Virus record (IMG/VR): IMGVR_UViG_2690316166_000012
Direction: 5' to 3' (one strand)
Origin: a virus
Lineage: Duplodnaviria; Heunggongvirae; Uroviricota; Caudoviricetes
Length of the DNA: 18,281 bases
Every line of letters starts with the position of its first letter. Position 1 is the first letter of the stretch. The notes beneath the pieces were generated by a model. That model had not been told where the DNA came from. It saw nothing but the letters and a program-made list of their open reading frames with translations, and made no database searches. Of the stretch, positions 29 to 16,761 are shown one piece after another. The translations under genes were made by a program, and so were the position numbers.

Positions 29-1027
29 TTACAGATAATCCGCGACAACCAGCTCCAGCTTGCCCTTCATCTCGTTAGAGACTGTGGCGTTACCGTCCGC
101 GAACAGCTCGCGCTCCAGCAGCTGCACCGCCTGTTTTTCCAGCGAAGTGGGGACAACAATATGGGTGGGTTTGATGCCGAGTTTGCGGCCACCGTCAGCC
201 TTAAAGTCACGCATGGCTGACCAGCCGTGCCACAGCGCATCCAGCGTCAGCGGTGACTGCATCATGTAGGCCATCTGCCAGAAGCCGTAGCCCACATTGC
301 GACGGGCGGAAGCACCGAACACAAACTCGTTATCAGTAAACGCACGGCCTTCATCGACTTTTGTCTGGGCAACCAGTTCGGCCTTGCGGCGATCCTGGTA
401 AATCAGCGGTTTTACCGCGCGGGAGCAGTCGAGCAGATACCAGGCCGGGCCACTGTAATCCGCCTGTGCACCGACAGAGCCGGTTTTTGCCACAAACATA
501 TTGCTGACCATCTGTGCATCCCCGGAGCCATCCACTTTGGGGTAAACCGGGTGTTCGGTATCAAAGAAGTTCTGGCCGTCATAGCAGGCCGCACTGATCC
601 CGTCACGCAGTGCAGCAAAGACCAGTTCATCCGGTTGTGCCGCCGCAGCGCGCCCCATCTCCTGGAACAATGGGGAGTAGATGCCAAGATTGTCGTCTTC
701 GAAGTCATCGCGGCTAATGGCGACGGTGCCTTNNNNNNNNNNNNNNNNNNNNNNNAAGGTTTTGTTCACGATGGCGTAGCCATAGGCTTTCATCTTCTCG
801 ATGACGCGGGAGCCGATCCACTCACGGAACTGCGGGAACTGCCCAAGCCAGCCGTAGGTGTTGGATNNNNNNNNNNNNNNNNNNNNNNNNNNNNNNNNNG
901 ACGTGGACGGTACGGTCATCGCAATTTTCTGGTACTGCGACGGAGCCATGGACATCCCGGCCTGAAAATCAGAACGGTAGCCCGTCATCAGGGCGGTGAT
1001 CATCGCCGGTGTAATCGGGGTAGGCAT
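29..1027 (-). CDS. Major head (capsid) subunit, Mu gpT-like
   Basis: 333-codon ORF. N-terminus MPTPITPAMITALMTGYRSDFQAG... and the SNTYGWLGQFPQFREWIG segment resemble the Mu-like prophage major head subunit family as I recall it. ATG at 1027 overlaps the upstream stop (TAATG). Last gene of the head module; two short masked blocks lie inside. Confidence 0.8.
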   Translation of the reverse strand: MPTPITPAMITALMTGYRSDFQAGMSMAPSQYQKIAMTVPSTXXXXXXXXXXXXSNTYGWLGQFPQFREWIGSRVIEKMKAYGYAIVNKTXXXXXXXXXGTVAISRDDFEDDNLGIYSPLFQEMGRAAAAQPDELVFAALRDGISAACYDGQNFFDTEHPVYPKVDGSGDAQMVSNMFVAKTGSVGAQADYSGPAWYLLDCSRAVKPLIYQDRRKAELVAQTKVDEGRAFTDNEFVFGASARRNVGYGFWQMAYMMQSPLTLDALWHGWSAMRDFKADGGRKLGIKPTHIVVPTSLEKQAVQLLERELFADGNATVSNEMKGKLELVVADYL

Positions 1028-1605
1028 TATTGCATTTCCTCTTTCATTTTCAGGAACTCGGCTTCGGTTTTACCCAGCAGATGGGCGGCGGCGATATCTT
1101 CAGCCGACAGCACAGCAGTGGCGGTCTTTTTATCCGGCACGGTCACGGTGTCGGTCTGAAGAGTGGTCAGAGCCGCAACCGGCTGGCGGGCGTCAAGCTG
1201 TGCAGAAAGTGCTGTAACGCCAATCTGTTGTCCGAGTCCTTCCATGTATCCGCGTTCGCTTTTGAAAATGCGTCCTTCGGACTCAGCCTTATCCAGCAAC
1301 TGCTCCAGCGTGGTGCTGCCGTGCTGTGCCGACAGCGCGACATATTCGGTACGCAGGGCGTTATACGTCTCAACGGGCACGTATTTCGTCAGATCAATAG
1401 TGCCGCCAGTTGGTGTGCCTTTTGCGGTTTCCAGCTCTGCCGACAGGCTGGCAACCTGCGTTTTCAGGGTGTCGTGCGCATCCGCACGGGTTTTGATCCC
1501 GGTAAGGGCAGACAGCGCCGCCGTGCCCAGTTCCGGTGTAAATTCGTCACCGTCGGCCACGGTCAGACCGAGCGCCGTCAGCAACTGGCGTAATTGCTCA
1601 TTCAT
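1027..1605 (-). CDS. Putative head scaffolding protein (Mu Z-like position)
   Basis: 193-codon ORF with ATG at 1605 and AAAGGA about 8 nt upstream. Ala/Leu/Thr/Gln-rich, likely helical. Sits between the protease-like ORF and the major head gene and is coupled to it (TAATG). Assignment rests on synteny and composition, not a recognised motif. Confidence 0.5.
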   Translation of the reverse strand: MNEQLRQLLTALGLTVADGDEFTPELGTAALSALTGIKTRADAHDTLKTQVASLSAELETAKGTPTGGTIDLTKYVPVETYNALRTEYVALSAQHGSTTLEQLLDKAESEGRIFKSERGYMEGLGQQIGVTALSAQLDARQPVAALTTLQTDTVTVPDKKTATAVLSAEDIAAAHLLGKTEAEFLKMKEEMQ

Positions 1606-1616
1606 GGAGGTGTCCT

Positions 1617-1958
1617 TTAAAGGANNNNNNNNNNNNNNNNNNNNNNNNNNNNNNNNNNNNNNNNNNNNNNNNNNNNNNNNNNNNNNNNNNNNNNNNNNNN
1701 NNNNNNNNNNNNNNNNNNNNNNNNNNNNNNNNNNNNNNNNNNNNNNNNNNNNNNNNNNNNNNNNNNNNNNNNNNNNNNNNNNNNNNNNNNNNNNNNNNNN
1801 NNNNNNNNNNNNNNNNNNNNNNNNNNNNNNNNNNNNNNNNNNNNNNNNCCCCGCTCTTCACTGAAACGGAAGTTCTCCGGCGAGGCCATGACAAAACCGG
1901 CAGCCGGTGCCGCATGCCCCTCAATCAGTGACTGGTGGTTATAGTCAATCTTCACCGG
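1617..1958 (-). CDS. Head maturation protease (Mu I-like), 3' part; 5' end hidden in masked block
   Basis: Frame is open from the mask through 1849-1958 (..PVKIDYNHQSLIEGHAAPAAGFVMASPENFRFSEER..) and stops at 1617-1619. The two other frames here are not protein-like (one stops at 1952). Position between portal/F and scaffold matches the Mu I protease. Another masked block (1625-1848) lies inside. Confidence 0.4.
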   Translation of the reverse strand, partial: PVKIDYNHQSLIEGHAAPAAGFVMASPENFRFSEERXXXXXXXXXXXXXXXXXXXXXXXXXXXXXXXXXXXXXXXXXXXXXXXXXXXXXXXXXXXXXXXXXXXXXXXXXXXXL

Positions 1959-2897
1959 NNNNNNNNNNNNNNNNNNNNNNNNNNNNNNNNNNNNNNNNNN
2001 NNNNNNNNNNNNNNNNNNNNNNNNNNNNNNNNNNNNNNNNNNNNNNNNNNNNNNNNNNNNNNNNNNNNNNNNNNNNNNNNNNNNNNNNNNNNNNNNNNNN
2101 NNNNNNNNNNNNNNNNNNNNNNNNNNNNNNNNNNNNNNNNNNNNNNNNNNNNNNNNNNNNNNNNNNNNNNNNNNNNNNNNNNNNNNNNNNNNNNNNNNNN
2201 NNNNNNNNNNNNNNNNNNNNNNNNNNNNNNNNNNNNNNNNNNNNNNNNNNNNNNNNNNNNNNNNNNNNNNNNNNNNNNNNNNNNNNNNNNNNNNNNNNNN
2301 NNNNNNNNNNNNNNNNNNNNNNNNNNNNNNNNNNNNNNNNNNNNNNNNNNNNNNNNNNNNNNNNNNNNNNNNNNNNNNNNNNNNNNNNNNNNNNNNNNNN
2401 NNNNNNNNNNNNNNNNNNNNNNNNNNNNNNNNNNNNNNNNNNNNNNNNNNNNNNNNNNNNNNNNNNNNNNNNNNNNNNNNNNNNNNNNNNNNNNNNNNNN
2501 NNNNNNNNNNNNNNNNNNNNNNNNNNNNNNNNNNNNNNNNNNNNNNNNNNNNNNNNNNNNNNNNNNNNNNNNNNNNNNNNNNNNNNNNNNNNNNNNNNNN
2601 NNNNNNNNNNNNNNNNNNNNNNNNNNNNNNNNNNNNNNNNNNNNNNNNNNNNNNNNNNNNNNNNNNNNNNNNNNNNNNNNNNNNNNNNNNNNNNNNNNNN
2701 NNNNNNNNNNNNNNNNNNNNNNNNNNNNNNNNNNNNNNNNNNNNNNNNNNNNNNNNNNNNNNNNNNNNNNNNNNNNNNNNNNNNNNNNNNNNNNNNNNNN
2801 NNNNNNNNNNNNNNNNNNNNNNNNNNNNNNNNNNNNNNNNNNNNNNNNNNNNNNNNNNNNNNNNNNNNNNNNNNNNNNNNNNNNNNNNNNNNNNNNN

Positions 2898-3013
2898 AGA
2901 CTCTCCGCCACACTGCGTGCCAGGTCTTTTCCGCTTCCCACAAACTGAAGCCGGGCAAAGACCCGCTGGAGACGCGCAACGTCCACCACGACCGCCGCAT
3001 CAATGGATGACAT
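2898..3013 (-). CDS. Head-module protein, N-terminal part only (possibly Mu G-like virion morphogenesis protein); 3' end masked
   Basis: ATG at 3013 with GGAGG 5 nt upstream; MSSIDAAVVVDVARLQRVFARLQFVGSGKDLARSVAES then N. This frame stops at 1952 right after the mask while a different frame is coding at 1849-1958, so it is a separate gene from the protease ORF. Identity is by synteny only. Confidence 0.35.
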
Positions 3014-3134
3014 ATTGCCTCCGCATAAAAGATGAATATAAAATAAACAGGCGGTCAGTGTACGCTTAACTGGTAAAGTCGGTGCCTGCCTCCGGGTGGA
3101 TCATGTATGCGGGTTCGACCCCCGCCACTGACCG
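3014..3134 (-). promoter_or_regulatory. Structured intergenic region between F and the next head gene: candidate activator-dependent late promoter plus tRNA-like hairpin element
   Basis: Minus strand has a -10-like TATATT (plus 3035-3040) about 24 nt upstream of the ATG at 3013, with no good -35. Plus strand 3109-3125 forms a hairpin GCGGG-TTCGACC-CCCGC, and GTCAGTG (3054-3060) pairs with CACTGAC (3126-3132). In Mu a C-dependent late promoter lies upstream of gene I. Confidence 0.3.
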
Positions 3135-4466
3135 TTAATCAATTTGTCCTTCCAGCACCTCAAGCATTCCGCCCCGGATATCCGATTTCAGCTTATCCAT
3201 ATTGATAACCCGGTAAGCATTCACAATCACATCCAGTTTGTCGGGCTGACGTTTCAGACTGTACGGTGCATTAACGGCAATCTGCACACTGCCATCCTTA
3301 TTTTCCACGATATACATCAGATTGTTGTGCCGTTTGTCCCACAGCACCGCTTTTGGCTTTGCCAGCATTGCCGGTAAGCGCCCGAAGTCCTCTGGCATCA
3401 GGGCGATGCCGTCATTCTGATGTTTCACACTGTCTGCATGGAGCACATTTTTACCGCTCATCGCCAGCAGGCGGGCCGGTGGCGTTCCCGTCCGGCTTTC
3501 CACTGCCTGCGCAATGCTTTCAGTCATAAAGCCCAGCGTGCGGATATCGTTACCACCTCGCCGGGTCTGCATGATGTTTTTTGCCCAGATGCGGAACGCC
3601 AGCTGCCGCTCCGGGCTGTTGTTCATCTCCTGAACCACCATTTCCCGTAACGCCGGGCTTTTCACCTCGATCAGTTTGCGGATCAGCGCCTGGTCTGTGC
3701 CGAACGCTGCCGAGCCGGGGTTATATGACCAGCCCACATCCGGTGTCATGGTTCTGGTGCCATCTGAATATGTGGTCACCGGCATTTCTCTGACTTCTCC
3801 GGTCTGTTTATCCACGCCAGCCTCAACATTGCGGGTGGAGAGATGATCCTCACCGGATGAAACGGATAACCCCATTGCATCCAGACGGGCCTGAGACAAT
3901 GGCCGCACACGGCAGCGACAGTTCCAGCCATTGGGCGGGTAGTGAGTATTCCAGAACGGATCATCATAGCGGAATACCAGCCCGTTAAGGGCGGAATGTG
4001 CCGGGCGGGTGCGGCTGTCCATCACCGCCACATACTGCCAGAACGGATGCGTGTCCGTGTTGTTCATCATCTGCGTGTAACGCCCGGCATTGTAAGCCAC
4101 ACGGGTGTTCACGTTGTAAATCAGCGCCAGACGGCGGGGGCTGCCAAGCTGCACTTCTTCCGCGTTCCCTGCACTGTCCACCACAATCTGCTTTCCCCAC
4201 CATCCCAGCTTTTGCAGGCGGGGTGTCAGCGTGCGGATAAATGTTTTCTGTGAAATGCCCTCATCAACAGCACGCTGCACTTCCGCCTGTAGTGTGGTCA
4301 GTACGTCCAGGCGTGCCACTTTTGCCGCCGTGAATGAACGGGCATGAACATCCGCGTCTGTTTCGAACCAGTTCCAGCTGATATGCTCCCCTTTGGCGCG
4401 GAAGTATGCCACCGCCTCTTTTGAGGGAAGCGTGGCGGCATAACCTAAATCAATCCCCTGTGTCAT
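3135..4466 (-). CDS. Minor head / head morphogenesis protein, Mu gpF (SPP1 gp7) family
   Basis: 444-codon uninterrupted ORF directly downstream of the portal region. Size and sequence (..YNAGRYTQMMNNTDTHPFWQYVAVMDSRTRPAHSALNGLVF..NGWNCRCRV..) fit the Mu F-type head morphogenesis protein as I recall it. Confidence 0.8.
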   Translation of the reverse strand: MTQGIDLGYAATLPSKEAVAYFRAKGEHISWNWFETDADVHARSFTAAKVARLDVLTTLQAEVQRAVDEGISQKTFIRTLTPRLQKLGWWGKQIVVDSAGNAEEVQLGSPRRLALIYNVNTRVAYNAGRYTQMMNNTDTHPFWQYVAVMDSRTRPAHSALNGLVFRYDDPFWNTHYPPNGWNCRCRVRPLSQARLDAMGLSVSSGEDHLSTRNVEAGVDKQTGEVREMPVTTYSDGTRTMTPDVGWSYNPGSAAFGTDQALIRKLIEVKSPALREMVVQEMNNSPERQLAFRIWAKNIMQTRRGGNDIRTLGFMTESIAQAVESRTGTPPARLLAMSGKNVLHADSVKHQNDGIALMPEDFGRLPAMLAKPKAVLWDKRHNNLMYIVENKDGSVQIAVNAPYSLKRQPDKLDVIVNAYRVINMDKLKSDIRGGMLEVLEGQID

Positions 4467-4714
4467 CCAGCATCCCCTTCATTTCCGCAGCGAACATGGC
4501 ATCACTGAGCAGCGTCATCAGGCGGGAATCATCCATTTCACGATAAAGGGCAGGCAGGTCTGCCAGCGCATCCGCCAGCCCCCGCGTTCTGATGGCATCA
4601 ATGACCGGCTCCAGTACCGGGTCGATGGCCTCCTGTAAGCGGCGGGCAGGCACCGCGTCCCCCATATCATCCAGTTCATCACGCGGCGTGCTTTTCGCTT
4701 CCGGCAGTCTGGCT
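4450..4714 (-). CDS. Protein-coding segment ending at 4450 (portal C-terminus if the mask hides a frame change, otherwise a separate small gene)
   Basis: Protein-like frame from the mask edge to the stop at 4450-4452 (..ARLPEAKSTPRDELDDMGDAVPARRLQEAIDPVLEPVIDAIRTRGLADALADLPALYREMDDSRLMTLLSDAMFAAEMKGMLDDTGD), overlapping the F start by 17 nt. By coordinate it is in a different frame from the portal N-terminal ORF. Confidence 0.45.
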
Positions 4715-6317
4715 NNNNNNNNNNNNNNNNNNNNNNNNNNNNNNNNNNNNNNNNNNNNNNNNNNNNNNNNNNNNNNNNNNNNNNNNNNNNNNNNNNNNNN
4801 NNNNNNNNNNNNNNNNNNNNNNNNNNNNNNNNNNNNNNNNNNNNNNNNNNNNNNNNNNNNNNNNNNNNNNNNNNNNNNNNNNNNNNNNNNNNNNNNNNNN
4901 NNNNNNNNNNNNNNNNNNNNNNNNNNNNNNNNNNNNNNNNNNNNNNNNNNNNNNNNNNNNNNNNNNNNNNNNNNNNNNNNNNNNNNNNNNNNNNNNNNNN
5001 NNNNNNNNNNNNNNNNNNNNNNNNNNNNNNNNNNNNNNNNNNNNNNNNNNNNNNNNNNNNNNNNNNNNNNNNNNNNNNNNNNNNNNNNNNNNNNNNNNNN
5101 NNNNNNNNNNNNNNNNNNNNNNNNNNNNNNNNNNNNNNNNNNNNNNNNNNNNNNNNNNNNNNNNNNNNNNNNNNNNNNNNNNNNNNNNNNNNNNNNNNNN
5201 NNNNNNNNNNNNNNNNNNNNNNNNNNNNNNNNNNNNNNNNNNNNNNNNNNNNNNNNNNNNNNNNNNNNNNNNNNNNNNNNNNNNNNNNNNNNNNNNNNNN
5301 NNNNNNNNNNNNNNNNNNNNNNNNNNNNNNNNNNNNNNNNNNNNNNNNNNNNNNNNNNNNNNNNNNNNNNNNNNNNNNNNNNNNNNNNNNNNNNNNNNNN
5401 NNNNNNNNNNNNNNNNNNNNNNNNNNNNNNNNNNNNNNNNNNNNNNNNNNNNNNNNNNNNNNNNNNNNNNNNNNNNNNNNNNNNNNNNNNNNNNNNNNNN
5501 NNNNNNNCGGGATGATCCCGCCTGTACGTCGCCCGATATCCATCACCGCCCGCATCAGGGCGCTTTTCTGCTCCGGTGTTGCCCCGGACGGGTATTTCCC
5601 GACCTTCATCGGCAGTCCGTACACCTCCAGAAATTCGGCCAGATCGCGCACGGAATAGTTTTTGAAAATGAACGGCCAGATAAGCGTCCTGACAAGCCCC
5701 GTTGCGCCACCGTAACCGGTCCGTGAACGTGACTGATGCACTATCCAGCCAAAAGGCTGAAACGCCACCCCGGCATGGCTGCCGTCACGCAGCCGCAGTT
5801 CGCTCAAATCATCCGGGTTAAGGCAGAAATGCCCGCTGTCACGCCAGCGGATGGCGCGGATGATGTGCATTTTACCGAGCATCCCGTGCTCAATTTCCAT
5901 GCAGGAATAGCCCTTCAGGATGGCATCCGTGGCGTCAAACAGCATGGCATCAAACCAGTCTGCGGAATGCAGATATTCGTCGAGCATTTCCGCGTCCTTT
6001 TTCTCATTCGCGCTGGCGTTCGGTGGCGGCTCAATACTCCATGGCACCCCCTGAATGGCAAGACGTCGCTTGCCCAGCTCCGCAAAAAGGTGGGTGTCCT
6101 TTTCTTCAATGTCAGCCGCCAGATCGGACTGGGCAATCAGGTCGCCACGTTCAGCCCCCCGAAGGCACTGCGCCGCCCGGTTCGGGGTGATACCCGAGGC
6201 GGGATGCTCAACATAACGGCTGGCAATCTGCGGAATATCCAGCGCGGTACTCTGCATCTCCGGGTCAAAGGAGAGAGGTTTTCCGTCAAGATCAATTATG
6301 CGTCCCACTACCAGCAC
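4715..6317 (-). CDS. Portal protein (Mu gp29 / DUF935-like); 3' end inside masked block 4715-5507
   Basis: Start at 6317 (GTG; in-frame ATG 20 codons later) overlaps the TerL stop. 270 visible codons 5508-6317 (..DIPQIASRYVEHPASGITPNRAAQ..WFDAMLFDATDAILKGYSCMEIE..) look like a Mu-type portal, placed between TerL and F. The out-of-frame stretch 4518-4714 is not protein-like. Confidence 0.75.
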
Positions 6318-7972
6318 CCCCGTTCAAATTCATGATATGCCTCATCGTCATCACGATAACCGCCCTCCATTGCCCGCGACCGCTCCGGCAGCGCCTGACA
6401 GGCTGATTCATCCAGGATGAATCCCTCCATGTATGACGCCCGGTTTGCCATACAGAGTGCCACGGCAAAATCACCATGGCGGCGGGCGTTCGCAGCCGTT
6501 GCGTTCTGGTCCTTCGTGCGCCCCTTGTCGATTTGCGGGATACCATTCACCACCTTCACATGGCGCAAATCATCAAGCGTGGTCTGATGGCGGGCGACGA
6601 GGATATTCTGATCTTCAAACTCGGCTTTCAGTTTTGGCATCCACTCGCCGTACCACTTCGGCGACAACATCACGCAGTCGATGATGTCCGGGCCAAAGGC
6701 CAGCAGTGCGGCTTCTGCCAGATAGCCGCCGTTACCGGTGGCGTCGAACGCCGCACCGACCAGCGCCGGAACGCGGGTCAGGATGTACATCATCACCTGT
6801 TCCTGCTGGGCATACGGCAGGTTGCGCAGCTCCACGCGAAACACCTCGCGCTTTGCCAGGGATTCGGTGATTTCCAGCAGCACAAAGCAGGACAGGTCAC
6901 CGGTGCGGGCAAAGTCTTCCCCGAAGCTGAAGCGGGAACGGGGATTTAATTTCTCTAAAAGCGGTTTTAAATGTTCTTCACACCAGGTTAAAACTTCCGA
7001 TTCACGCAGCCATGCGGCACGGCTGATGAAGTTGTCCGGGGCTTCAAACGTCAGAATCGGGATGTCGCGGATCATCGCCATTTCAATAAGCGCGTGAGGA
7101 ATATAGGCACCGCCGGATTTTTTCGGGATACAGCCGTATTCCTCGTCGGCATCCTCACGGGTCGGGGCGTTTTTGTAGAGATCATCACGCCATTTCTGCT
7201 CGCTTTCCGGTGACCATTCCTGATCGGTGACGTAACAGATACGACGGTACAGCCCGTCCGCAATGGCATCATCCAGGGTTATGCGGTGGACGCTGTAATC
7301 CTTGCGCCCCTCGCGGGCTTCCTGAATGTACTGATTAAACAGATTATCGACGCCGTTATGCGTGGAGATAATACGCACGCGCGCGCCCCACATAGTGAGC
7401 GCCATTGCCGCCTTGAGAAGCTCATCCAGTGACTCGTGGAACGCGGCTTCATCAATCACCACATCCCCCTGAAGGCCGCGCAGGTTTGACGGACGGGAAG
7501 ACAGTGCCTGAATTTTGAATCCACTGTTCGGAAAGCGGATCATGTAGGTCAGAATTTCTTCTTTTTTATCCCGATCCCAGAAGGTCTGCTCATACACATC
7601 AGCATCCGCCAGCTGGTTAAAGGCGCGGGAGAACAGGGCGCAGGCAGAAATATATTCCAGCGCCATCTCCTGCTTTGATCCCACATAAAACACATTGCGG
7701 CCACCACGACGCTTCGGTTTTGCAGCAGTAATGACGTTACGCCCGGCTTCCGCCCAGGTAAGACCGGTGCGGCGGGATTTTTCCGCAATGCAGACCTGAC
7801 TTTCATCCTCAAACCAGCGGGCCTGATAATCCAGAAACACCGGCATATCACCGGGCAAATCAAGTCTGTCCGGCACATCCACGCCCAGCAGGGCTTTTTC
7901 ACCGGACAGATCAATTTTGCGGGGAGGCGTCATTTGTATCAGTGAAGGAGACGTTTCTTTGGCTTTGTTCAT
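6308..7972 (-). CDS. Terminase large subunit (Mu gp28-like)
   Basis: 555-codon uninterrupted ORF. ATG at 7972 overlaps the stop of the upstream 82-aa ORF (TGATG), and its stop overlaps the portal start. Size, position between small terminase and portal, and sequence fit a large terminase. Confidence 0.8.
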   Translation of the reverse strand: MNKAKETSPSLIQMTPPRKIDLSGEKALLGVDVPDRLDLPGDMPVFLDYQARWFEDESQVCIAEKSRRTGLTWAEAGRNVITAAKPKRRGGRNVFYVGSKQEMALEYISACALFSRAFNQLADADVYEQTFWDRDKKEEILTYMIRFPNSGFKIQALSSRPSNLRGLQGDVVIDEAAFHESLDELLKAAMALTMWGARVRIISTHNGVDNLFNQYIQEAREGRKDYSVHRITLDDAIADGLYRRICYVTDQEWSPESEQKWRDDLYKNAPTREDADEEYGCIPKKSGGAYIPHALIEMAMIRDIPILTFEAPDNFISRAAWLRESEVLTWCEEHLKPLLEKLNPRSRFSFGEDFARTGDLSCFVLLEITESLAKREVFRVELRNLPYAQQEQVMMYILTRVPALVGAAFDATGNGGYLAEAALLAFGPDIIDCVMLSPKWYGEWMPKLKAEFEDQNILVARHQTTLDDLRHVKVVNGIPQIDKGRTKDQNATAANARRHGDFAVALCMANRASYMEGFILDESACQALPERSRAMEGGYRDDDEAYHEFERGCW

Positions 7973-8220
7973 CAGGCTTTACCTGTCAGAATGCTTTTGA
8001 TTCGGAACTCAAGCTCTTCAGTCATCACGTCCACGCCACTCAACTCATCAGTGACAGCCTCTGCCAGCAGCGAATGCAGTTGTTCCAGGGATATTTCCCC
8101 GGCAATGCTGAGTTCAGTCAACTCACGACACGCTTTTATGGTTTCAGGAGGTAACTGTGTTGCAAGACTGAATGCCTTCTGATGAGCACTACTCATCAGT
8201 GAGCGGTTATCTGTTACCAC
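7972..8220 (-). CDS. Small protein carrying a copy of the small-terminase C-terminal tail
   Basis: GTG at 8220 preceded by a strong SD (AGGAGGTGA), and stop overlapping the TerL ATG. Its C-terminus AVTDELSGVDVMTEELEFRIKSILTGKA parallels the C-terminus of the 193-aa upstream protein, AVTDELRGVDGMSEQIEFRIRQMLLGKA. The DNA is also visibly similar. Confidence 0.6.
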   Translation of the reverse strand: MVTDNRSLMSSAHQKAFSLATQLPPETIKACRELTELSIAGEISLEQLHSLLAEAVTDELSGVDVMTEELEFRIKSILTGKA

Positions 8221-8230
8221 GATTCACCTC

Positions 8231-8812
8231 CTACGCCTTACCAAGCAGCATCTGCCTGATACGGAATTCTATCTGCTCGCTCATGCCATCCACGCCGCGC
8301 AACTCGTCGGTGACGGCGTTCGCCATCTCTTCAGCAAATGCGGCCCGGATTTCTTTTTCACGCTTAATGCTGCGCTCGGCGGCACTTTCCGCACGCTGTG
8401 CCGACAGGAGGATGTCCTTAATAAGGCGCATATCCACATCGCTGTCGCTGTTCAGGGATTCGGTGGCAGCACGCAGACGGCGGTACATCAGGGCGCGGGA
8501 CATTTCCAGAATCAGTGCCGTGGTTTCACCGGTCGGCTTGTCCCCCAGTTCGGCCATCATGGCTTTTGTCTGCTCGCGTAAATCACGCAGGTTACGGGCA
8601 ATCAGCTCATTACGGGAGGCCTCCCGGCTGATGGCCGCCGGTGAAAGCTGCTGCTCTTCCGGCAGACCCGCCTCACGGATCAGGCGGTTGATTTCCTCGC
8701 GGATCTGGACCTGCGTCAGGCGTTTTTCACGCAGCATTTCCAGCAGCGGCTTACGGATGCTGTCGGGGAGCAAATCCACCTTGCGTACACGGCCACGCGT
8801 TGGCTTATCCAT
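8231..8812 (-). CDS. Putative terminase small subunit / DNA-binding protein (Mu gp27-like)
   Basis: 194-codon ORF with ATG at 8812 and AAGGGGG upstream. Basic, HTH-like N-terminus (RGRVRKVDLLPDSIRKPLLEMLREKRLTQVQIREEINRLIREAG), coiled middle and conserved C-terminal tail, immediately upstream of TerL. Confidence 0.65.
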   Translation of the reverse strand: MDKPTRGRVRKVDLLPDSIRKPLLEMLREKRLTQVQIREEINRLIREAGLPEEQQLSPAAISREASRNELIARNLRDLREQTKAMMAELGDKPTGETTALILEMSRALMYRRLRAATESLNSDSDVDMRLIKDILLSAQRAESAAERSIKREKEIRAAFAEEMANAVTDELRGVDGMSEQIEFRIRQMLLGKA

Positions 8813-8814
8813 CG

Positions 8815-9105
8815 TTACCCCCTTGCGCGTGGTTTCTTCACACCCGGAACGGTGGCGCGGCCTTCCGCCACATCCTGACCCCGGCCGGTCAGTTCAACGA
8901 TGAAATAACCGTTAACAAGCGTGCGCTTACGCACCAGTCCCTGCTCGGCAAGCCAGGCAATATGGGTATGCACGGTGTCGCGGGACACGCGGTGGCCGTA
9001 ATCATCCAGGCAGTCCTGAAGCACGGATTCGCCCAGTTCGCCGTTGTAATCCGCCAGCGACCGCAGAATGACAAGACGCTGATCTTCAGTAATGAAATCA
9101 CTCAT
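8815..9105 (-). CDS. Small winged-helix-like DNA-binding protein (Mu gp26 position)
   Basis: 97-codon ORF with ATG at 9105. Sequence (..QRLVILRSLADYNGELGESVLQDCLDDYGHRVSRDTVHTHIAWLAEQGLVRKRTLVNGYFIVELTGRGQDVAEG..) has a helix-turn-helix-wing pattern. Tightly packed between the membrane protein and TerS. Confidence 0.5.
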   Translation of the reverse strand: MSDFITEDQRLVILRSLADYNGELGESVLQDCLDDYGHRVSRDTVHTHIAWLAEQGLVRKRTLVNGYFIVELTGRGQDVAEGRATVPGVKKPRARG

Positions 9106-9409
9106 TGTGTTTTTTCCTTACAGCCTGCTCCAGCAGCAGTTCGTTCTGGTGGGAGACGGATTTCAGGGTGGCATTGGTGGCCTTAAGCTCACCGCGCAGG
9201 GTGGTGATTTCGATATTGAGTCTGTTCACCTCCTGCTGCGTGGGCAGGCCGGAAATCCGGCTCTCCACCCGCTCAACCCGGTCGGAGAGTTTTTCAAAGG
9301 CCTCGCGGGGGACAAAGGTTTTGCGCATCAGCGCCATAAAGATCCCCCCGGCCGTGGCCGTTGCCGACAGGATCGGCACGACATAATCTTTAACGATGCT
9401 GATCCACAT
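9098..9409 (-). CDS. Single-TM membrane protein with coiled coil (Mu gp25 / releasin-like position)
   Basis: 104-codon ORF with ATG at 9409 and GGAGG 7 nt upstream. Hydrophobic N-terminus (ISIVKDYVVPILSATATAGGIFMALM) followed by a charged coiled-coil segment. Lies in the lysis cassette downstream of the spanins. Confidence 0.5.
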   Translation of the reverse strand: MWISIVKDYVVPILSATATAGGIFMALMRKTFVPREAFEKLSDRVERVESRISGLPTQQEVNRLNIEITTLRGELKATNATLKSVSHQNELLLEQAVRKKHNE

Positions 9410-9617
9410 GACCGGCCTCCATGATGCTCTGGCAGTTCACACAACGGATGGCATCCGGCACGGCAACCAGACGGGCGGCCGGAATGTCACCCCCGCAGTC
9501 TGCGCATACACGCCTGCCCGGAGTATCCTCCACCCGGCACTTACGTGTCAGCCGGTCACAAAGGGCGCGTTCTGTTGCCCGCTCCATGACTGCCTGAGCA
9601 CAATCTGAATCATCCAT
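9390..9617 (-). CDS. TraR/DksA-family C4 zinc-finger protein
   Basis: 76-codon ORF from ATG at 9617 (AAGGA upstream); the ORF track's longer start at 9683 overlaps the o-spanin. Contains CADC-x17-CVNC (C-x2-C-x17-C-x2-C), typical of phage TraR-like proteins. Confidence 0.65.
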   Translation of the reverse strand: MDDSDCAQAVMERATERALCDRLTRKCRVEDTPGRRVCADCGGDIPAARLVAVPDAIRCVNCQSIMEAGHVDQHR

Positions 9618-9627
9618 ACCTTTTTCC

Positions 9628-9999
9628 TTACTTCGTCTTTCCTGCCGGAACAGCAGACGTTCCGGCCATATCAGTAAATTCATGCTGTCGCCGTACCTCC
9701 AGACGGCGGATGCTGGCCTTGTCCACGTTGCAGTTCTTAATCACCGCCAGCAGTTGCAGGTTGTAAGTGACCGATGCGCCAAACGTGAACGGCTGCGGCA
9801 CAGAAGGGACCAGACAGTCAGCCAGCCATTCAGCGGGGATCGGCACCGGCTTCACCGGCACGTATTTCACAGACGGCCCGCCGCACCCGGTCAGCCACAT
9901 CATCAGGCACAGGAACAGCGGCCGCAGGCACCGTTGCCAGCGACCGGCGGACAATGCTCTGCTGTTCCTCGCTGTGCTGCATGTTCTGCTGTTTTTCAT
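9628..9999 (-). CDS. o-spanin (outer-membrane lipoprotein spanin subunit), overlapped with the i-spanin
   Basis: Lipobox LTG|C (Cys codon at 9883-9885) preceded by a basic-then-hydrophobic signal (RWQRCLRPLFLCLMMWLTG), then a proline-rich mature part (CGGPSVKYVPVKPVPIPAEW...). Its 5' part lies inside the i-spanin gene in another frame. Start is uncertain (ATG at 9999, or 9903/9900). Confidence 0.55.
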   Translation of the reverse strand: MKNSRTCSTARNSRALSAGRWQRCLRPLFLCLMMWLTGCGGPSVKYVPVKPVPIPAEWLADCLVPSVPQPFTFGASVTYNLQLLAVIKNCNVDKASIRRLEVRRQHEFTDMAGTSAVPAGKTK

Positions 10000-10330
10000 T
10001 CGTGGCCGCCTTACTGATTTGTGAAATGAGTTGCAGGGTGCGTTGCTGGTTTGCCAGCACCAGACGGGCTTCGTCCCGTTCACGCACAAGCACATGATTA
10101 TTGTCCTCAAGGCGCTGCGTCTTCTGGTGCATTCCCCATACCACGGCAGCCAGCACACTCATCACCCCCAGCGCCGCCATACAGCCTCCGGCAATCAGGG
10201 CTGGTAAGGGATTATTCACCGCAGCCACAGCACACCCCGCAGCACCACAACAGCACACAGCAGCGCAATCATGAGCGGTCGCCAGAAACGGTTCAGACTT
10301 TCGGCAAGTCGTAACGACATAACCATTCAT
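9830..10330 (-). CDS. i-spanin (inner-membrane spanin subunit)
   Basis: Hydrophobic TM-like segment (PALIAGGCMAALGVMSVLAAVVW) followed by a long charged/Gln-rich helical region (HQKTQRLEDNNHVLVRERDEARLVLANQQRTLQLISQ...), with the o-spanin overlapping its 3' end. Start is ambiguous (ATG 10330 or in-frame GTG 10219). Confidence 0.5.
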   Translation of the reverse strand: MNGYVVTTCRKSEPFLATAHDCAAVCCCGAAGCAVAAVNNPLPALIAGGCMAALGVMSVLAAVVWGMHQKTQRLEDNNHVLVRERDEARLVLANQQRTLQLISQISKAATNEKQQNMQHSEEQQSIVRRSLATVPAAAVPVPDDVADRVRRAVCEIRAGEAGADPR

Positions 10331-10363
10331 CCGCCGAACGGCGGGCCTCAAGACCGGGGAGTT

Positions 10364-10575
10364 TCACCCCCTTTGAATAAATCCNNNNNNNNNNNNNNNN
10401 NNNNNNCAGCGGATATACTGCTTACAGGACGCGGGCATCTGCCCGGCATTGATAAGGCGCAGGAGCGTGGAGTTGCGAAAGTTCGTTTCACCGGCCCAGA
10501 AAATCCAGGAGGCCAACGCCACCGTCTGACCACGGGTAAGCGGCACCTGAACATGACGATCGATAGCCGCAAAGG
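10364..10575 (-). CDS. Endolysin, GH24 lysozyme family, C-terminal part; 5' end masked
   Basis: Frame reads ..FAAIDRHVQVPLTRGQTVALASWIFWAGETNFRNSTLLRLINAGQMPASCKQYIR.., matching the C-terminal region of P22 gp19 / lambdoid R-type lysozymes as I recall them. Ends at stop 10364-10366; upstream part lies in mask 10576-11388. Confidence 0.5.
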
Positions 10576-11439
10576 NNNNNNNNNNNNNNNNNNNNNNNNN
10601 NNNNNNNNNNNNNNNNNNNNNNNNNNNNNNNNNNNNNNNNNNNNNNNNNNNNNNNNNNNNNNNNNNNNNNNNNNNNNNNNNNNNNNNNNNNNNNNNNNNN
10701 NNNNNNNNNNNNNNNNNNNNNNNNNNNNNNNNNNNNNNNNNNNNNNNNNNNNNNNNNNNNNNNNNNNNNNNNNNNNNNNNNNNNNNNNNNNNNNNNNNNN
10801 NNNNNNNNNNNNNNNNNNNNNNNNNNNNNNNNNNNNNNNNNNNNNNNNNNNNNNNNNNNNNNNNNNNNNNNNNNNNNNNNNNNNNNNNNNNNNNNNNNNN
10901 NNNNNNNNNNNNNNNNNNNNNNNNNNNNNNNNNNNNNNNNNNNNNNNNNNNNNNNNNNNNNNNNNNNNNNNNNNNNNNNNNNNNNNNNNNNNNNNNNNNN
11001 NNNNNNNNNNNNNNNNNNNNNNNNNNNNNNNNNNNNNNNNNNNNNNNNNNNNNNNNNNNNNNNNNNNNNNNNNNNNNNNNNNNNNNNNNNNNNNNNNNNN
11101 NNNNNNNNNNNNNNNNNNNNNNNNNNNNNNNNNNNNNNNNNNNNNNNNNNNNNNNNNNNNNNNNNNNNNNNNNNNNNNNNNNNNNNNNNNNNNNNNNNNN
11201 NNNNNNNNNNNNNNNNNNNNNNNNNNNNNNNNNNNNNNNNNNNNNNNNNNNNNNNNNNNNNNNNNNNNNNNNNNNNNNNNNNNNNNNNNNNNNNNNNNNN
11301 NNNNNNNNNNNNNNNNNNNNNNNNNNNNNNNNNNNNNNNNNNNNNNNNNNNNNNNNNNNNNNNNNNNNNNNNNNNNNNNNNNNNNNNNTTCAGCCATACC
11401 CGCCTCCGGTCATCATTACACAGGGCAAGTTTAAAATAA

Positions 11440-11463
11440 AAATCCCGCGCTGTGGCGGGATTT
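11440..11463 (-). terminator. Rho-independent terminator (minus strand)
   Basis: Perfect 9-bp stem aaatcccgc / gcgggattt with 6-nt loop (plus 11440-11463). On the minus strand it is followed by a T-run (TTATTTTAAAC), then GGAGG and an ATG at 11397 (MAE...) starting the next gene, which runs into the mask. Confidence 0.5.
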
Positions 11464-12836
11464 GGNNNNNNNNNNNNNNNNNNNNNNNNNNNNNNNNNNN
11501 NNNNNNNNNNNNNNNNNNNNNNNNNNNNNNNNNNNNNNNNNNNNNNNNNNNNNNNNNNNNNNNNNNNNNNNNNNNNNNNNNNNNNNNNNNNNNNNNNNNN
11601 NNNNNNNNNNNNNNNNNNNNNNNNNNNNNNNNNNNNNNNNNNNNNNNNNNNNNNNNNNNNNNNNNNNNNNNNNNNNNNNNNNNNNNNNNNNNNNNNNNNN
11701 NNNNNNNNNNNNNNNNNNNNNNNNNNNNNNNNNNNNNNNNNNNNNNNNNNNNNNNNNNNNNNNNNNNNNNNNNNNNNNNNNNNNNNNNNNNNNNNNNNNN
11801 NNNNNNNNNNNNNNNNNNNNNNNNNNNNNNNNNNNNNNNNNNNNNNNNNNNNNNNNNNNNNNNNNNNNNNNNNNNNNNNNNNNNNNNNNNNNNNNNNNNN
11901 NNNNNNNNNNNNNNNNNNNNNNNNNNNNNNNNNNNNNNNNNNNNNNNNNNNNNNNNNNNNNNNNNNNNNNNNNNNNNNNNNNNNNNNNNNNNNNNNNNNN
12001 NNNNNNNNNNNNNNNNNNNNNNNNNNNNNNNNNNNNNNNNNNNNNNNNNNNNNNNNNNNNNNNNNNNNNNNNNNNNNNNNNNNNNNNNNNNNNNNNNNNN
12101 NNNNNNNNNNNNNNNNNNNNNNNNNNNNNNNNNNNNNNNNNNNNNNNNNNNNNNNNNNNNNNNNNNNNNNNNNNNNNNNNNNNNNNNNNNNNNNNNNNNN
12201 NNNNNNNNNNNNNNNNNNNNNNNNNNNNNNNNNNNNNNNNNNNNNNNNNNNNNNNNNNNNNNNNNNNNNNNNNNNNNNNNNNNNNNNNNNNNNNNNNNNN
12301 NNNNNNNNNNNNNNNNNNNNNNNNNNNNNNNNNNNNNNNNNNNNNNNNNNNNNNNNNNNNNNNNNNNNNNNNNNNNNNNNNNNNNNNNNNNNNNNNNNNN
12401 NNNNNNNNNNNNNNNNNNNNNNNNNNNNNNNNNNNNNNNNNNNNNNNNNNNNNNNNNNNNNNNNNNNNNNNNNNNNNNNNNNNNNNNNNNNNNNNNNNNN
12501 NNNNNNNNNNNNNNNNNNNNNNNNNNNNNNNNNNNNNNNNNNNNNNNNNNNNNNNNNNNNNNNNNNNNNNNNNNNNNNNNNNNNNNNNNNNNNNNNNNNN
12601 NNNNNNNNNNNNNNNNNNNNNNNNNNNNNNNNNNNNNNNNNNNNNNNNNNNNNNNNNNNNNNNNNNNNNNNNNNNNNNNNNNNNNNNNNNNNNNNNNNNN
12701 NNNNNNNNNNNNNNNNNNNNNNNNNNNNNNNNNNNNNNNNNNNNNNNNNNNNNNNNNNNNNNNNNNNNNNNNNNNNNNNNNNNNNNNNNNNNNNNNNNNN
12801 NNNNNNNNNNNNNNNNNNNNNNNNNNNNNNNNNNNN

Positions 12837-12966
12837 TTTCTGGCATATCCCGCTTGTCACATTCTTTATCCATAAAAGAAACGAATTTCTCTGCATCTTC
12901 CGGTTTCATGCCTCCGGCGATAAGGATTTTGCGATATTCATAAGACGATCTTAATTCAATACTCAT
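12837..12966 (-). CDS. Hypothetical protein, N-terminal part only (3' end masked)
   Basis: ATG at 12966, 15 nt after the upstream stop. Visible sequence MSIELRSSYEYRKILIAGGMKPEDAEKFVSFMDKECDKRDMPE is protein-like; an overlapping alternative frame is less so. Confidence 0.35.
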
Positions 12967-12981
12967 TATTCACCTGCCTGC

Positions 12982-13332
12982 TTAATCTGTTTCCAGTGCT
13001 TTGCTACGGGCTATAGCCTCACATTCAAAAAATACCGACTCCGGCACGCGCTCTTTTAATTCACGAACAAGGAAATCATTAACGCGTTCATGACGTCTTA
13101 TATTTCTTTCCTTTTCCTCCTGGCGCAATACAGCAAGGCGGTATTCAACAGCCCGGCGTTGTTTCTGAAAGACAGCCAGTGCTTTTCTGGCAGCATTACG
13201 CCATGCATCATCGCCACATGGTGCGTATTCAAGCTGAAATTTAATCTCTTCAATAGTTTCTTTGATTTTTGCCAGCAAGCTAAGACAGTCGCTTATTGTC
13301 TCCAGCTTTTCATTATCAATATAACTTCTCAC
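12982..13332 (-). CDS. Hypothetical coiled-coil protein (accessory operon)
   Basis: GTG at 13332 overlaps the upstream stop (GTGA); an ATG at 13374 is the alternative start. Charged helical protein (..LSLLAKIKETIEEIKFQLEYAPCGDDAWRNAARKALAVFQKQRRAVEYRLAVLRQEEKERNIRRHERVNDFL..). GC content is visibly lower than in the late genes. Confidence 0.45.
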   Translation of the reverse strand: MRSYIDNEKLETISDCLSLLAKIKETIEEIKFQLEYAPCGDDAWRNAARKALAVFQKQRRAVEYRLAVLRQEEKERNIRRHERVNDFLVRELKERVPESVFFECEAIARSKALETD

Positions 13333-13658
13333 GCATTCACCTCCCGTAATTCCGGTAAAGCCGAAATATGACACCAGTGCGTCACCTGTCCGTCTTCATC
13401 TTCAAGGCAGGCTCCGGTTTCTTCATCAACAAAAAAGCCTTCATACCCCATATGGCCGATGCGCAGCTCCTGACGGTGACCATACTGAACAATCAGCACG
13501 ACAGCCTCCATATCAGGTGGGAAAGCATCATTCAGTGAATGCCAGGGATAACCGCGTAAATCCCCGAAATAAACACCGGTCAGCGTTCCGCCACAGAGCG
13601 GCATTCCGGCGGCACACACAAGAGGTTCATCTGATTCAACAAATAAGGTCGTTATCAT
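13329..13658 (-). CDS. Hypothetical small acidic, lysine-free protein (accessory operon)
   Basis: 110-codon ORF whose ATG overlaps the upstream stop (ATGA), with GGGAG upstream. Translation has 18 D/E, 4 R and no K, plus several Cys/His (..PLVCAAGMPLCGG..HWCH..). Confidence 0.5.
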   Translation of the reverse strand: MITTLFVESDEPLVCAAGMPLCGGTLTGVYFGDLRGYPWHSLNDAFPPDMEAVVLIVQYGHRQELRIGHMGYEGFFVDEETGACLEDEDGQVTHWCHISALPELREVNA

Positions 13659-14308
13659 GGCGTTAACTCCCGTANNNNNNNNNNNNNNNNNNNNNNNNNN
13701 NNNNNNNNNNNNNNNNNNNNNNNNNNNNNNNNNNNNNNNNNNNNNNNNNNNNNNNNNNNNNNNNNNNNNNNNNNNNNNNNNNNNNNNNNNNNNNNNNNNN
13801 NNNNNNNNNNNNNNNNNNNNNNNNNNNNNNNNNNNNNNNNNNNNNNNNNNNNNNNNNNNNNNNNNNNNNNNNNNNNNNNNNNNNNNNNNNNNNNNNNNNN
13901 NNNNNNNNNNNNNNNNNNNNNNNNNNNNNNNNNNNNNNNNNNNNNNNNNNNNNNNNNNNNNNNNNNNNNNNNNNNNNNNNNNNNNNNNNNNNNNNNNNNN
14001 NNNNNNNNNNNNNNNNNNNNNNNNNNNNNNNNNNNNNNNNNNNNNNNNNNNNNNNNNNNNNNNNNNNNNNNNNNNNNNNNNNNNNNNNNNNNNNTTGGGT
14101 GTTTATATTTCAGTAACTCCGGGTATGAACTGCGCAATACACCAGTCCGGTTATATACAGCCCAGACAGTTCTTTTTATTCTGGCAGCAATATCCTTAAC
14201 CGGGGTGGATGAATAAAGCGCAATCAGTAGCGCATCTTCTTCAGGTGTCCACGCGCGGACATGAGCGGGTGTACGACCTTTTCGCCCCATGTGTTGTAAA
14301 ATCATCAT
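13655..14308 (-). CDS. Hypothetical protein with Myb/SANT-like helix-turn-helix N-terminus; interior masked
   Basis: ATG at 14308 with AGGGGGTGA upstream, overlapping the preceding stop. N-terminus GRKGRTPAHVRAWTPEEDALLIALYSSTPVKDIAARIKRTVWAVYNRTGVL resembles a Myb/SANT-type repeat. Only 6 codons are visible after mask 13675-14094, so one continuous gene is assumed, not shown. Confidence 0.4.
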   Translation of the reverse strand: MMILQHMGRKGRTPAHVRAWTPEEDALLIALYSSTPVKDIAARIKRTVWAVYNRTGVLRSSYPELLKYKHPXXXXXXXXXXXXXXXXXXXXXXXXXXXXXXXXXXXXXXXXXXXXXXXXXXXXXXXXXXXXXXXXXXXXXXXXXXXXXXXXXXXXXXXXXXXXXXXXXXXXXXXXXXXXXXXXXXXXXXXXXXXXXXXXXXXXXXXXXXXXXRELTP

Positions 14309-14311
14309 ACA

Positions 14312-14728
14312 TCACCCCCTGACTCGCTTTTCGGCAGCATAAAACTCATCAGACAGAATTTCGGTCATTTTCCGTTTTGCGGAATCATCTTCGCACTGAA
14401 GATAAATCACATTGTCAACGCAGAACCAGTTCACGGGACCATACAATATTGCTGAGAAGTCAATACCCAGCCAGAACAACAGGGCATCGGTTCTGGCATA
14501 CGTGACGGGCGAATATTCACGCCACAGACTGTTCAGTTCATCAGAGGCAACACGCAGGGCTTTAGGGATACGTGATGTGCGCGGTGTGCAGCTCCAGCCA
14601 TTCGACGCAGTCGGTTTTCGCCATAAGTCGCGATGAAAAGGATATTTGTCCTCCGTAAAACGCAGTCCCTTAAAACAAAAACCACTGATACTGAATTCAA
14701 ATACCGACCGGCACGCAACATTCAGCAC
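14312..14728 (-). CDS. Hypothetical protein; 5' boundary uncertain (frame stays open upstream into the mask)
   Basis: C-terminal two thirds are protein-like (..KALRVASDELNSLWREYSPVTYARTDALLFWLGIDFSAILYGPVNWFCVDNVIYLQCEDDSAKRKMTEILSDEFYAAEKRVRG). No well-placed ATG; the GTG at 14728 is the ORF-track start, and the frame continues open to the mask at 14774. Confidence 0.35.
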   Translation of the reverse strand: MLNVACRSVFEFSISGFCFKGLRFTEDKYPFHRDLWRKPTASNGWSCTPRTSRIPKALRVASDELNSLWREYSPVTYARTDALLFWLGIDFSAILYGPVNWFCVDNVIYLQCEDDSAKRKMTEILSDEFYAAEKRVRG

Positions 14729-14747
14729 GGCCTCAAGGCGTTTCGCC

Positions 14748-15073
14748 TCATCTTTTACCGTCTGGCAGTCCTGNNNNNNNNNNNNNNNNNNNNNNNNNNN
14801 NNNNNNNNNNNNNNNNNNNNNNNNNNNNNNNNNNNNNNNNNNNNNNNNNNNNNNNNNNNNNNNNNNNNNNNNNNNNNNNNNNNNNNNNNNNNNNNNNNNN
14901 NNNNNNNNNNNNNNNNNNNNNNNNNNNNNNNNNNNNNNNNNNNNNNNNNNNNNNNNNNNNNNNNNNNNNNNNNNNNGCCATCACAAACTGGGGCACGCCT
15001 TCTTTCATGGCCTGCTCATCAACTTCAGCCACCACATAAACGGTTTCACAGGTCAGAACGCCCTGAGCAAATT
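14748..15073 (-). CDS. Hypothetical protein, mostly masked
   Basis: The visible island 14977-15073 is protein-like in only one minus frame (FAQGVLTCETVYVVAEVDEQAMKEGVPQFVMA). That frame ends at a stop at 14748-14750 after mask 14774-14976. Confidence 0.3.
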
Positions 15074-15172
15074 NNNNNNNNNNNNNNNNNNNNNNNNNNN
15101 NNNNNNNNNNNNNNNNNNNNNNNNNNNNNNNNNNNNNNNNNNNNNNNNNNNNNNNNNNNNNNNNNNNNNNNN

Positions 15173-15417: not shown

Positions 15418-15420
15418 GAA

Positions 15421-16750: not shown

Positions 16751-16761
16751 TTTGTTTTTCC

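Follow-up and report, generated by a model that had tools for sequence, protein, structure and literature searches.

A chimeric open reading frame with a second copy of the gp27 tail in a hypervariable slot between the terminase genes of an Escherichia coli Mu-like prophage

In phages lambda and P22 the C-terminus of the small terminase subunit (TerS) binds the N-terminus of the large subunit (TerL) (review PMC9611059). Our literature search on the Mu-like gp27 small terminase found nothing relevant. In Mu, gp27 ends at position 12891 and gp28 starts at 12899, leaving a gap of 7 nt without any open reading frame (ORF). Here we analyzed an 18,281-nt stretch of DNA (IMG/VR record IMGVR_UViG_2690316166_000012, hereafter called the window), an Escherichia coli Mu-like prophage in which an ORF of 82 codons, ORF82 (7972-8220, minus strand), is wedged between the genes encoding the gp27-family TerS and TerL. 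The initial annotation of this DNA noted that such an arrangement is not known from Mu, and the Mu coordinates agree with it. We show that ORF82 is a chimera built of the core of a family of small proteins found in the same slot, a second copy of the gp27 C-terminal tail and a coupled TerL start, and that the slot itself is hypervariable. This chimeric make-up, the tail-less sister forms and the nature of the gp27-TerL junction as a cargo slot were not found described in the literature searched; the ORF82 family itself already has a PHROGs entry, phrog_30922, and carries the RefSeq annotation 'hypothetical protein'.

The C-terminal tail of gp27 is present twice at this locus. BLASTP aligned gp27 residues 163-193 with ORF82 residues 52-82 (20/31 identical, 26/31 positive, E 1e-12) and aligned nothing else between the two proteins, and gp27 matched the phrog_30922 profile only at residues 162-193, against profile positions 51-82 (E 6e-8). 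The first copy, MANAVTDELRGVDGMSEQIEFRIRQMLLGKA, which carries the family-wide tail motif, is encoded at 8234-8326 and the second, LAEAVTDELSGVDVMTEELEFRIKSILTGKA, at 7975-8067, both on the minus strand, and the two DNA segments are 66% identical over 96 nt. The homology that the initial annotation had proposed for the two C-termini, and for the diverged DNA encoding them, is thus borne out over the last 31 residues and lies far beyond chance. Its description of ORF82 as a free-standing duplicate of the tail holds for the tail itself; the other two thirds of the protein belong to an unrelated slot family. When both proteins were searched against gp27 family models, gp27 matched PF11985 over its full length (E 3e-33, 116 bits vs a cutoff of 28) and phrog_426 'terminase small subunit' (E 9e-55). 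In contrast, ORF82 matched no Pfam family at E ≤ 0.1, and hence not PF11985, and aligned over residues 1-82 with positions 1-82 of the 82-position profile of phrog_30922 (E 1.1e-55), for which no function is assigned. The N-terminal helix-turn-helix (HTH) and long central helices of the gp27 type are not found in ORF82, of which only residues 52-82 align.

The first ~50 residues of ORF82 showed no similarity to gp27 by BLASTP or Pfam, and comparison of the core with a 20-member gp27 alignment by hhalign gave a probability of 0.1. They are homologous to small proteins that Mu-like prophages of Salmonella, Citrobacter and E. coli encode in this slot between TerS and TerL, forming a family that we name here ORF-X and that comprises the ORF82 core, ORF65 and ORF67. 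Residues 4-46 of ORF82 align with residues 6-48 of Citrobacter ORF65 (35% identity, E 2e-7), and ORF65 matches phrog_30922 at E 0.007. Apart from ORF82 variants and ORF67, a search of 5.8 billion clusters with a profile of these N-terminal parts returned many 65-aa Salmonella proteins and nothing else. The word-indexed search with ORF82 gave 11 clusters, all from E. coli or metagenome assemblies, and an exhaustive hidden Markov model search, which covered 1.84 billion representative proteins, added to the ORF82 family itself just P0132 (67 aa), which is ORF67; a leucine-rich repeat protein (P0133) from the exhaustive profile search was discarded as spurious. P0132 shares the N-terminal part of ORF82 without the tail; it lies 10 nt after a gp27 gene whose protein is identical to that of the window and is followed by a 119-nt spacer and by a TerL with a different N-terminus. 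In the alignment of the family a common core of ~55 residues is followed by 8 unrelated residues each in ORF65 and ORF67, and by 27 residues of gp27-like tail in ORF82. Because its N-terminal part is homologous to the tail-less ORF65 and ORF67 and unrelated to gp27, and its C-terminal part is a copy of the gp27 tail, ORF82 is a chimera: an ORF-X core (residues 1-55, 8056-8220, three predicted helices) placed directly after the gp27 stop codon with its own Shine-Dalgarno (SD) sequence, and a tail copy that overlaps this core by ~4 residues at the joint.

Searches of Pfam, NCBIfam and PDB sequences returned nothing for ORF82 or ORF65, and PHROGs returned only families of 'unknown function'; a marginal match of ORF65 to phrog_220 (E 2.5e-5, 58 residues of a 1338-position profile) was not trusted. 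The AlphaFold2 (AF2) model of ORF82 has helices at residues 4-21, 25-39 and 45-62 (mean predicted local distance difference test score, pLDDT, 68), the third extending into the tail, which then forms a low-confidence loop and a short terminal helix; a fold search of this model against BFVD gave no match at E ≤ 0.001. ORF82 also differs from its neighbours in base composition, with a GC content of 48.6% and a third-position GC content (GC3) of 47.6% vs 58.9 and 69.4% for gp27 and 55.3 and 63.2% for TerL. Together with the first 75 nt of TerL it forms a low-GC island (45-50% GC vs 55-59% in the neighbouring genes).

Both ends of ORF82 are tightly joined to the flanking genes. At the left junction (8221-8233, minus strand) the gp27 stop codon TAG (8231-8233) overlaps the SD sequence GGAGGTGA (8224-8231; TAGGAGGTGAATCGTG in context), which precedes the start codon by 6 nt; this start codon is GTG in the window and ATG in the other alleles. 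The junction is conserved in all ORF82 alleles and in the two other E. coli alleles called C and D below, and it is homologous to the Salmonella/Citrobacter junction GGTAAGGCGTGAGGTGGCTATG, so that gp27 end, SD sequence and first codons are homologous among the ORF82, ORF65 and ORF67 loci. In another locus (L069:3590-3853) an 87-aa slot ORF resembles ORF65 in its first 8 residues only (MQQKYDWY) and is otherwise unrelated, a further case in which the left junction and first codons are kept and the rest is replaced. At the right junction the ORF82 stop codon and the TerL ATG overlap by one base in TGATG (7970-7974, minus strand), the geometry of a translationally coupled gene pair, and coupling is predicted from it; ORF65 overlaps TerL as well (ATGA). 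A stretch of 16 nt, GGTAAAGCCTGATGAA, at the ORF82-TerL junction is identical to the gp27-TerL junction of prophages that lack ORF82. A scan of 7700-9200 found no promoter-like site or consensus, and no terminator flanking ORF82 on the minus strand; ORF82 therefore sits in the late operon. The strings quoted by the initial annotation, the SD sequence and the stop/start overlap are all present in the DNA, and its view that ORF82 is probably translated is supported by features of the sequence: a strong conserved SD sequence, an ATG or GTG start codon, the overlap with TerL and intact copies.

To see how common the arrangement is, we surveyed 109 gp27 loci from genomes and IMG/VR, of which 91 had both genes readable. 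The gp27 stop codon overlaps or abuts the TerL start in 66/91 loci, and gaps of at least 60 nt, holding assorted small ORFs, are found in 20/91; in one of these 20, locus L023, TerL is disrupted and there is no insert. The slot cargo includes ORF65, the 87-aa ORF, a 63-68-aa Vibrio protein (phrog_1761/5120) and several small hydrophobic peptides. On near-identical E. coli gp27 backgrounds we found four alleles: A without any ORF, gp27 overlapping TerL (O157:H7 strains); B with ORF82; C with ORF67 and the 119-nt spacer; and D with a 9-codon mini-ORF that keeps the SD sequence and start codon and whose end spans the TerL start. These observations show that the TerS-TerL slot is hypervariable. 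Of the complete E. coli genomes searched (5426), 25 have ORF82, and at least 184 others (about 184-205) carry a closely related prophage without it; it is also found on 8 IMG/VR contigs (7 with downstream TerL in the locus), down to 87% nucleotide identity. Allele C had no megablast match in complete E. coli genomes. The conservation among related Mu-like prophages that the initial annotation had proposed as a check is therefore partial: ORF82 is kept in a sub-lineage (the 25 E. coli genomes and 8 contigs) and is absent from most close relatives. This distribution argues that ORF82 is an optional extra and not a core part of the packaging machine.

Several slot contents deserve mention in their own right. 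Allele D was seen in two IMG/VR loci (L050:3582-3640 and L055), where the mini-ORF reads MATDWFSYE or MATDRFSYE and TerL has an N-terminus as in allele C; this allele looks like the result of a deletion that spared the translation signals. The 119-nt spacer of allele C is covered by a putative 39-codon antisense ORF (MMLQTQLELLERYLSG..., L010:5181-5300, minus strand of the locus). In Vibrio/Enterovibrio loci (L039:3582-3790 and L107:3576-3770) the start of the 63-68-aa ORF overlaps the gp27 stop codon; its product gave a sub-threshold match to the Acb2/Tad1 hairpin domain PF24729 (E 0.045), which is not reliable, and may be an anti-defence candidate. In four Vibrio/Aeromonas-type loci (L045, L119, L120 and L124) short hydrophobic ORFs (MSDHDWVVIGFFLMSVWWLLLIKF... 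and MDAFVLWLVITMPWFGALWV...) begin on the gp27 stop codon and may encode small membrane peptides.

The variability extends into TerL. The window TerL (phrog_2, E 2e-43) is 96% identical to the O157-type TerL of allele A, with 21 differences, 12 of them among the first 24 residues. Alleles C and D and the Citrobacter locus also have a different TerL N-terminus, and GC content is 45% over the first 75 nt of the window gene. The first ~20-25 codons of TerL (about 7898-7972) are part of the exchangeable cassette. The window TerL had no Pfam-A or NCBIfam match and was recognized by PHROGs; its RefSeq annotation is 'hypothetical protein'. The Mu RefSeq record calls the homologous gp28 a 'putative portal protein', apparently an annotation slip.

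The copied segment is a distinctive part of gp27. The AF2 model of gp27 shows HTH-like N-terminal helices, long helices, a loop at residues 172-178 and a C-terminal helix at 179-189; because its confidence is low (pLDDT 59), it was used for secondary structure only. In 20 diverse gp27 proteins G176 and G191 are invariant and I185, L190 and A193 near-invariant (numbering of the window gp27, used throughout), and this tail motif persists across gp27 proteins that are 33-97% identical; R172 and S178 are additional conserved residues in the enteric subgroup. Tails of the 'DGMSE...LLGKA' type pair with TerLs that are 66-96% identical to the window TerL and carry the PRKIDL...GVDVP N-terminal extension; tails of the 'AGLT...ILGIA' type all pair with TerLs ~46-50% identical to it. 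Two mosaic loci from IMG/VR, L083 (2983-5204) and L089 (2974-5192), combine a gp27 body of the Vibrio/Aeromonas type (33-36% identical to the window) with an enteric-type tail in the last ~30 residues and an enteric TerL (66-68% identical), and the switch of type occurs directly after the invariant KREKEIRAAFA motif. This suggests a recombination hotspot at which tail and TerL are swapped as a unit. Since tail type tracks TerL type across mosaics, and by analogy with TerS docking in lambda and P22, the gp27 tail is probably a TerL-specific element, which gives indirect support to the premise of the initial annotation that this tail faces TerL. The co-segregation could however be explained by linkage alone.

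Compared with this motif the ORF82 tail has lost four near-invariant residues. It retains I185, G191 and A193 and a clear overall homology, and it carries the replacements R172 to S, G176 to V, S178 to T and L190 to T in every ORF82 allele, at positions where 41-44 of 46 distinct close gp27 tails hold R, G, S and L/M. The gp27 tail nearest to the ORF82 copy is the ancestral-like O157 type (22/31 residues, 78% nucleotide identity). The tails of relatives without ORF82 match the Salmonella consensus and lack all residues that are derived in one window copy or the other, so these O157-type tails look ancestral. For the same reasons we set aside the idea that allele A lost the ORF when the two tail copies recombined with each other. 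In its 5' half the O157-type tail shares 90% identity with copy 1, and in its 3' half it is nearer to copy 2 (79% vs 67%).

Selection was examined by the ratio of nonsynonymous to synonymous changes per site (pN/pS) and by the distribution of variable sites in six to seven ORF82-bearing loci. pN/pS was 0.44 for ORF82 (0.47 for the core and 0.38 for the tail), 0.01 for gp27 and 0.10 for TerL, and the gp27 tail of these loci had 0 nonsynonymous vs 63 pairwise synonymous differences (pN/pS 0.00). Variable sites at first, second and third codon positions numbered 2/0/39 in gp27, 15/10/77 in TerL and 11/13/18 in ORF82 (P = 0.13 for the ORF82 pattern), and their density in ORF82 was 2.4-2.8 times that of the flanking genes. 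The 16 synonymous and 26 nonsynonymous variable sites of ORF82 do not reject neutrality at the 5% level (P = 0.086), and nothing can be concluded from the frame being free of stop codons (P = 0.27). ORF82 thus appears to evolve almost neutrally, under weak constraint. The frame is intact in 7/7 distinct alleles and in every complete-genome and IMG/VR copy read; no indel occurs in the 249 nt of the seven alleles, and SD sequence and start codon are kept in all of them down to 87% nucleotide identity. These data lean, though not decisively, against the ORF82 tail copy still making the TerL contact, and we regard docking of ORF82 on TerL as possible. The initial annotation had also offered ORF82 as a second small-subunit component; as a core role this is argued against by the unrelated core, the absence from most relatives, the lost tail residues and the near-neutral evolution.

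The explanation that we favour, and hold to be probable with some reserve, is that ORF82 is a chimeric accessory gene built by recombination in the hypervariable slot, translated and dispensable, which acts as an accessory or relay ORF. A crossover between a phage bearing an ORF-X gene and one with an ordinary gp27-TerL junction would have produced the fusion, probably at a short Ala-Val microhomology, where the end of the core (LLAEA/V) overlaps the start of the tail (MANAV), so that the ORF-X gene acquired in frame both the tail copy and the TerL initiation site with its stop/start overlap. ORF82 would be transcribed with the late packaging operon and efficiently translated from its own SD sequence, and terminating ribosomes would pass to the TerL start and reinitiate there. 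Because ribosomes would be handed over in this way, an open ORF82 frame would preserve TerL expression. Selection would mainly maintain the open frame, and the peptide, optional and weakly constrained, would drift. The working TerL contact would be made by the tail of gp27 itself, and the ORF82 copy would be degenerating or drifting to another use. For the ORF-X core we favour a dispensable accessory role over that of a terminase subunit.

Several observations weigh against this explanation. The ORF82 tail also keeps an acidic stretch and the predicted terminal helix, and about 20 nt would have been enough to carry the TerL initiation region, yet a tail of 93 nt was kept in frame and tail-like; these features would fit a tail that still binds TerL. 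In both halves of ORF82 pN/pS stays below 1, and purifying selection clearly acts on the tail-less ORF65 (pN/pS 0.29 vs 0.07 for its flanks, third-position excess P = 0.001). Because ORF65 is significantly constrained, the ORF-X core is a real, fast-evolving protein with some function. Some metagenomic and database variants of ORF82 (P0002, P0003 and P0008-P0011) are frameshifted, truncated or deleted in frame, which could reflect decay or assembly error. The direction of the event is not provable: the C-terminus of ORF65, LAVLEDKV, weakly resembles the tail start EAVTDELS, and ORF65 could be a truncated descendant of an ORF82-like ancestor. Finally, the translation, coupling and dispensability of ORF82 are all inferred from sequence.

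Another possibility, rather unlikely in our judgement, follows the functional idea of the initial annotation: ORF82 would be a TerL-docking mini-protein whose tail occupies the TerL site used by the gp27 tail, and it would either compete with gp27, and so tune the assembly of the terminase, or serve as an adaptor through which the ORF-X core joins the terminase as a third packaging component. The tail behaves as a module tracking TerL type (the mosaics L083 and L089, the 'ILGIA' tails), the lambda and P22 precedents (PMC9611059) speak for such docking, ORF82 keeps the overall tail pattern and terminal helix, and it has a strong SD sequence, TerL as its immediate neighbour and a frame intact in all seven alleles. 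Yet a V replaces the invariant Gly, a T the near-invariant Leu and S and T the near-invariant R and S, fixed in all alleles; the tail is less constrained than the gp27 tail of the same genomes (pN/pS 0.38 vs 0.00); the whole ORF is indistinguishable from neutral at the 5% level; the sister forms ORF65 and ORF67 end without a tail, allele D has lost the ORF, most relatives and Mu do without it, and simple linkage could make tail and TerL types segregate together. A more specific form, in which ORF82 is a domain-capture terminase adaptor whose tail docks the ORF-X core on the TerL N-terminus as a third, optional packaging factor, we regard as unlikely. If it were true, the adaptor might adjust the TerS:TerL ratio or the initiation of packaging, or protect TerL against satellite hijacking or host defences, and the fixed tail substitutions (G to V, L to T, R to S and S to T) would be adaptive changes of affinity and not decay.

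The same near-neutrality would suit a decaying, non-functional recombination scar, untranslated or translated without effect and open merely through recency, which we think distinctly unlikely. Neutrality is not rejected by either test (P = 0.086 and 0.13), the lack of stop codons carries no information (P = 0.27), variable sites are 2.4-2.8 times as dense as in the flanking genes, truncated, frameshifted and in-frame-deleted database variants exist, and allele D shows that the slot can be emptied. Against a scar, SD sequence and start codon are conserved to 87% nucleotide identity without an indel in 249 nt over seven alleles, pN/pS is below 1 in both halves and the homologous ORF65 is significantly constrained; moreover, because a nonsense mutation in ORF82 would probably have a polar effect on TerL by abolishing the coupling, selection is likely to act on the open frame itself. 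An origin in which the last ~260 nt of gp27 were simply duplicated in tandem, and the upstream two thirds then diverged beyond recognition, would fit the direct-repeat geometry, the two stop codons lying 259 nt apart. It is very improbable and effectively refuted, however, by an N-terminal part that is homologous to independent tail-less slot proteins, has no profile similarity to any part of gp27 and differs from it in GC and GC3, and by tail DNA that is still 66% identical next to a remainder with no detectable similarity. Least credible of all is that the real feature is a plus-strand antisense ORF (7942-8154 or 7991-8182) or a structured RNA, with ORF82 incidental. These antisense frames are free of stops for 78-102 codons in all alleles, but long open antisense frames are common opposite coding sequence, neither plus-strand ORF is preceded by a promoter-like site or an SD sequence, the Rfam scan gave no match at E ≤ 1, and the SD sequence, start codon and coupling geometry belong to ORF82.

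The genes around ORF82 lie on the minus strand of the window in the order of the Mu late operon. Lysozyme, spanins, a TraR/DksA zinc-finger protein and a DUF2730 protein are encoded upstream, followed by a winged-helix protein of the VpaChn25_0724 family (8815-9105), which precedes gp27 (193 aa, 8231-8812) by 2 nt. ORF82 and TerL (554 aa, 6308-7972) are followed by a full-length portal ORF (4518-6317) and then by MuF. A 291-aa database protein (P0013) fuses the VpaChn25_0724-family protein to gp27; it is probably a sequencing or frameshift artefact because the two genes lie just 2 nt apart in the window. In the window 5925 of 18281 bases, about a third, are masked as N in 13 runs within 733-18141, including most of 10576-12836, and ORFs listed through these runs are artefacts. 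Strain JKHS016 (NZ_CP147059.1) is 100% identical to the window across the 1 kb surrounding the ORF82 region. Its prophage (locus L002, 5280-7409) is rearranged, a truncated tape-measure gene adjoining a truncated portal (DUF935) gene in opposite orientation, both annotated as partial. On account of these truncations the JKHS016 copy is probably defective; the window portal ORF, by contrast, is full-length.

If the explanation that we favour is correct, ORF82 is a small-scale case of phage mosaicism making new proteins, in which an accessory ORF in a hotspot gained in frame both the partner-binding tail of its neighbour and the translation start of the downstream gene. The last ~30 residues of gp27 would behave as a TerL-specific exchangeable module with its crossover point at the invariant KREKEIRAAFA, and the gp27-TerL junction as a cargo slot for diverse small ORFs, with possible anti-defence candidates among them. 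Should the tail copy still bind TerL, ORF82 would provide a natural peptide for probing TerS-TerL assembly or competing with it; should it not, ORF82 would be an ordinary fast-evolving passenger gene.

The locus can be compared with four known systems. As in lambda gpNu1-gpA and in P22, where gp3 residues 140-162 pair with gp2 residues 1-58, the extreme C-terminus of TerS appears by analogy to be TerL-specific, tail and TerL types being inherited together; unlike them, the families are unrelated in sequence, and in the Mu family the relation is read here from sequence, in which linkage could explain the co-inheritance. With Mu gp27 and PF11985 ORF82 shares the homologous last 31 residues, the same predicted loop and terminal helix and the same stop/start overlap with TerL, but it has neither the HTH and long helices nor the PF11985 match, and its tail shows four substitutions and relaxed constraint. 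ORF65 of Salmonella and Citrobacter and ORF67 (P0132) have the slot, left junction, SD sequence and ~55-aa core in common with ORF82, and ORF65 also the predicted coupling to TerL; they end in 8 unrelated residues, and only ORF82 has the gp27-like tail. The locus also resembles the morons of Hendrix-type mosaicism: ORF82 lies between genes that are directly adjacent in most relatives, has a base composition distinct from that of its neighbours, is present or absent among near-identical phages with alternative contents in the slot, and evolves fast. Unlike a classical moron it has no promoter or terminator of its own, and it lies within the predicted translational-coupling chain of the operon and is in part a copy of the 3' end of the neighbouring gene.

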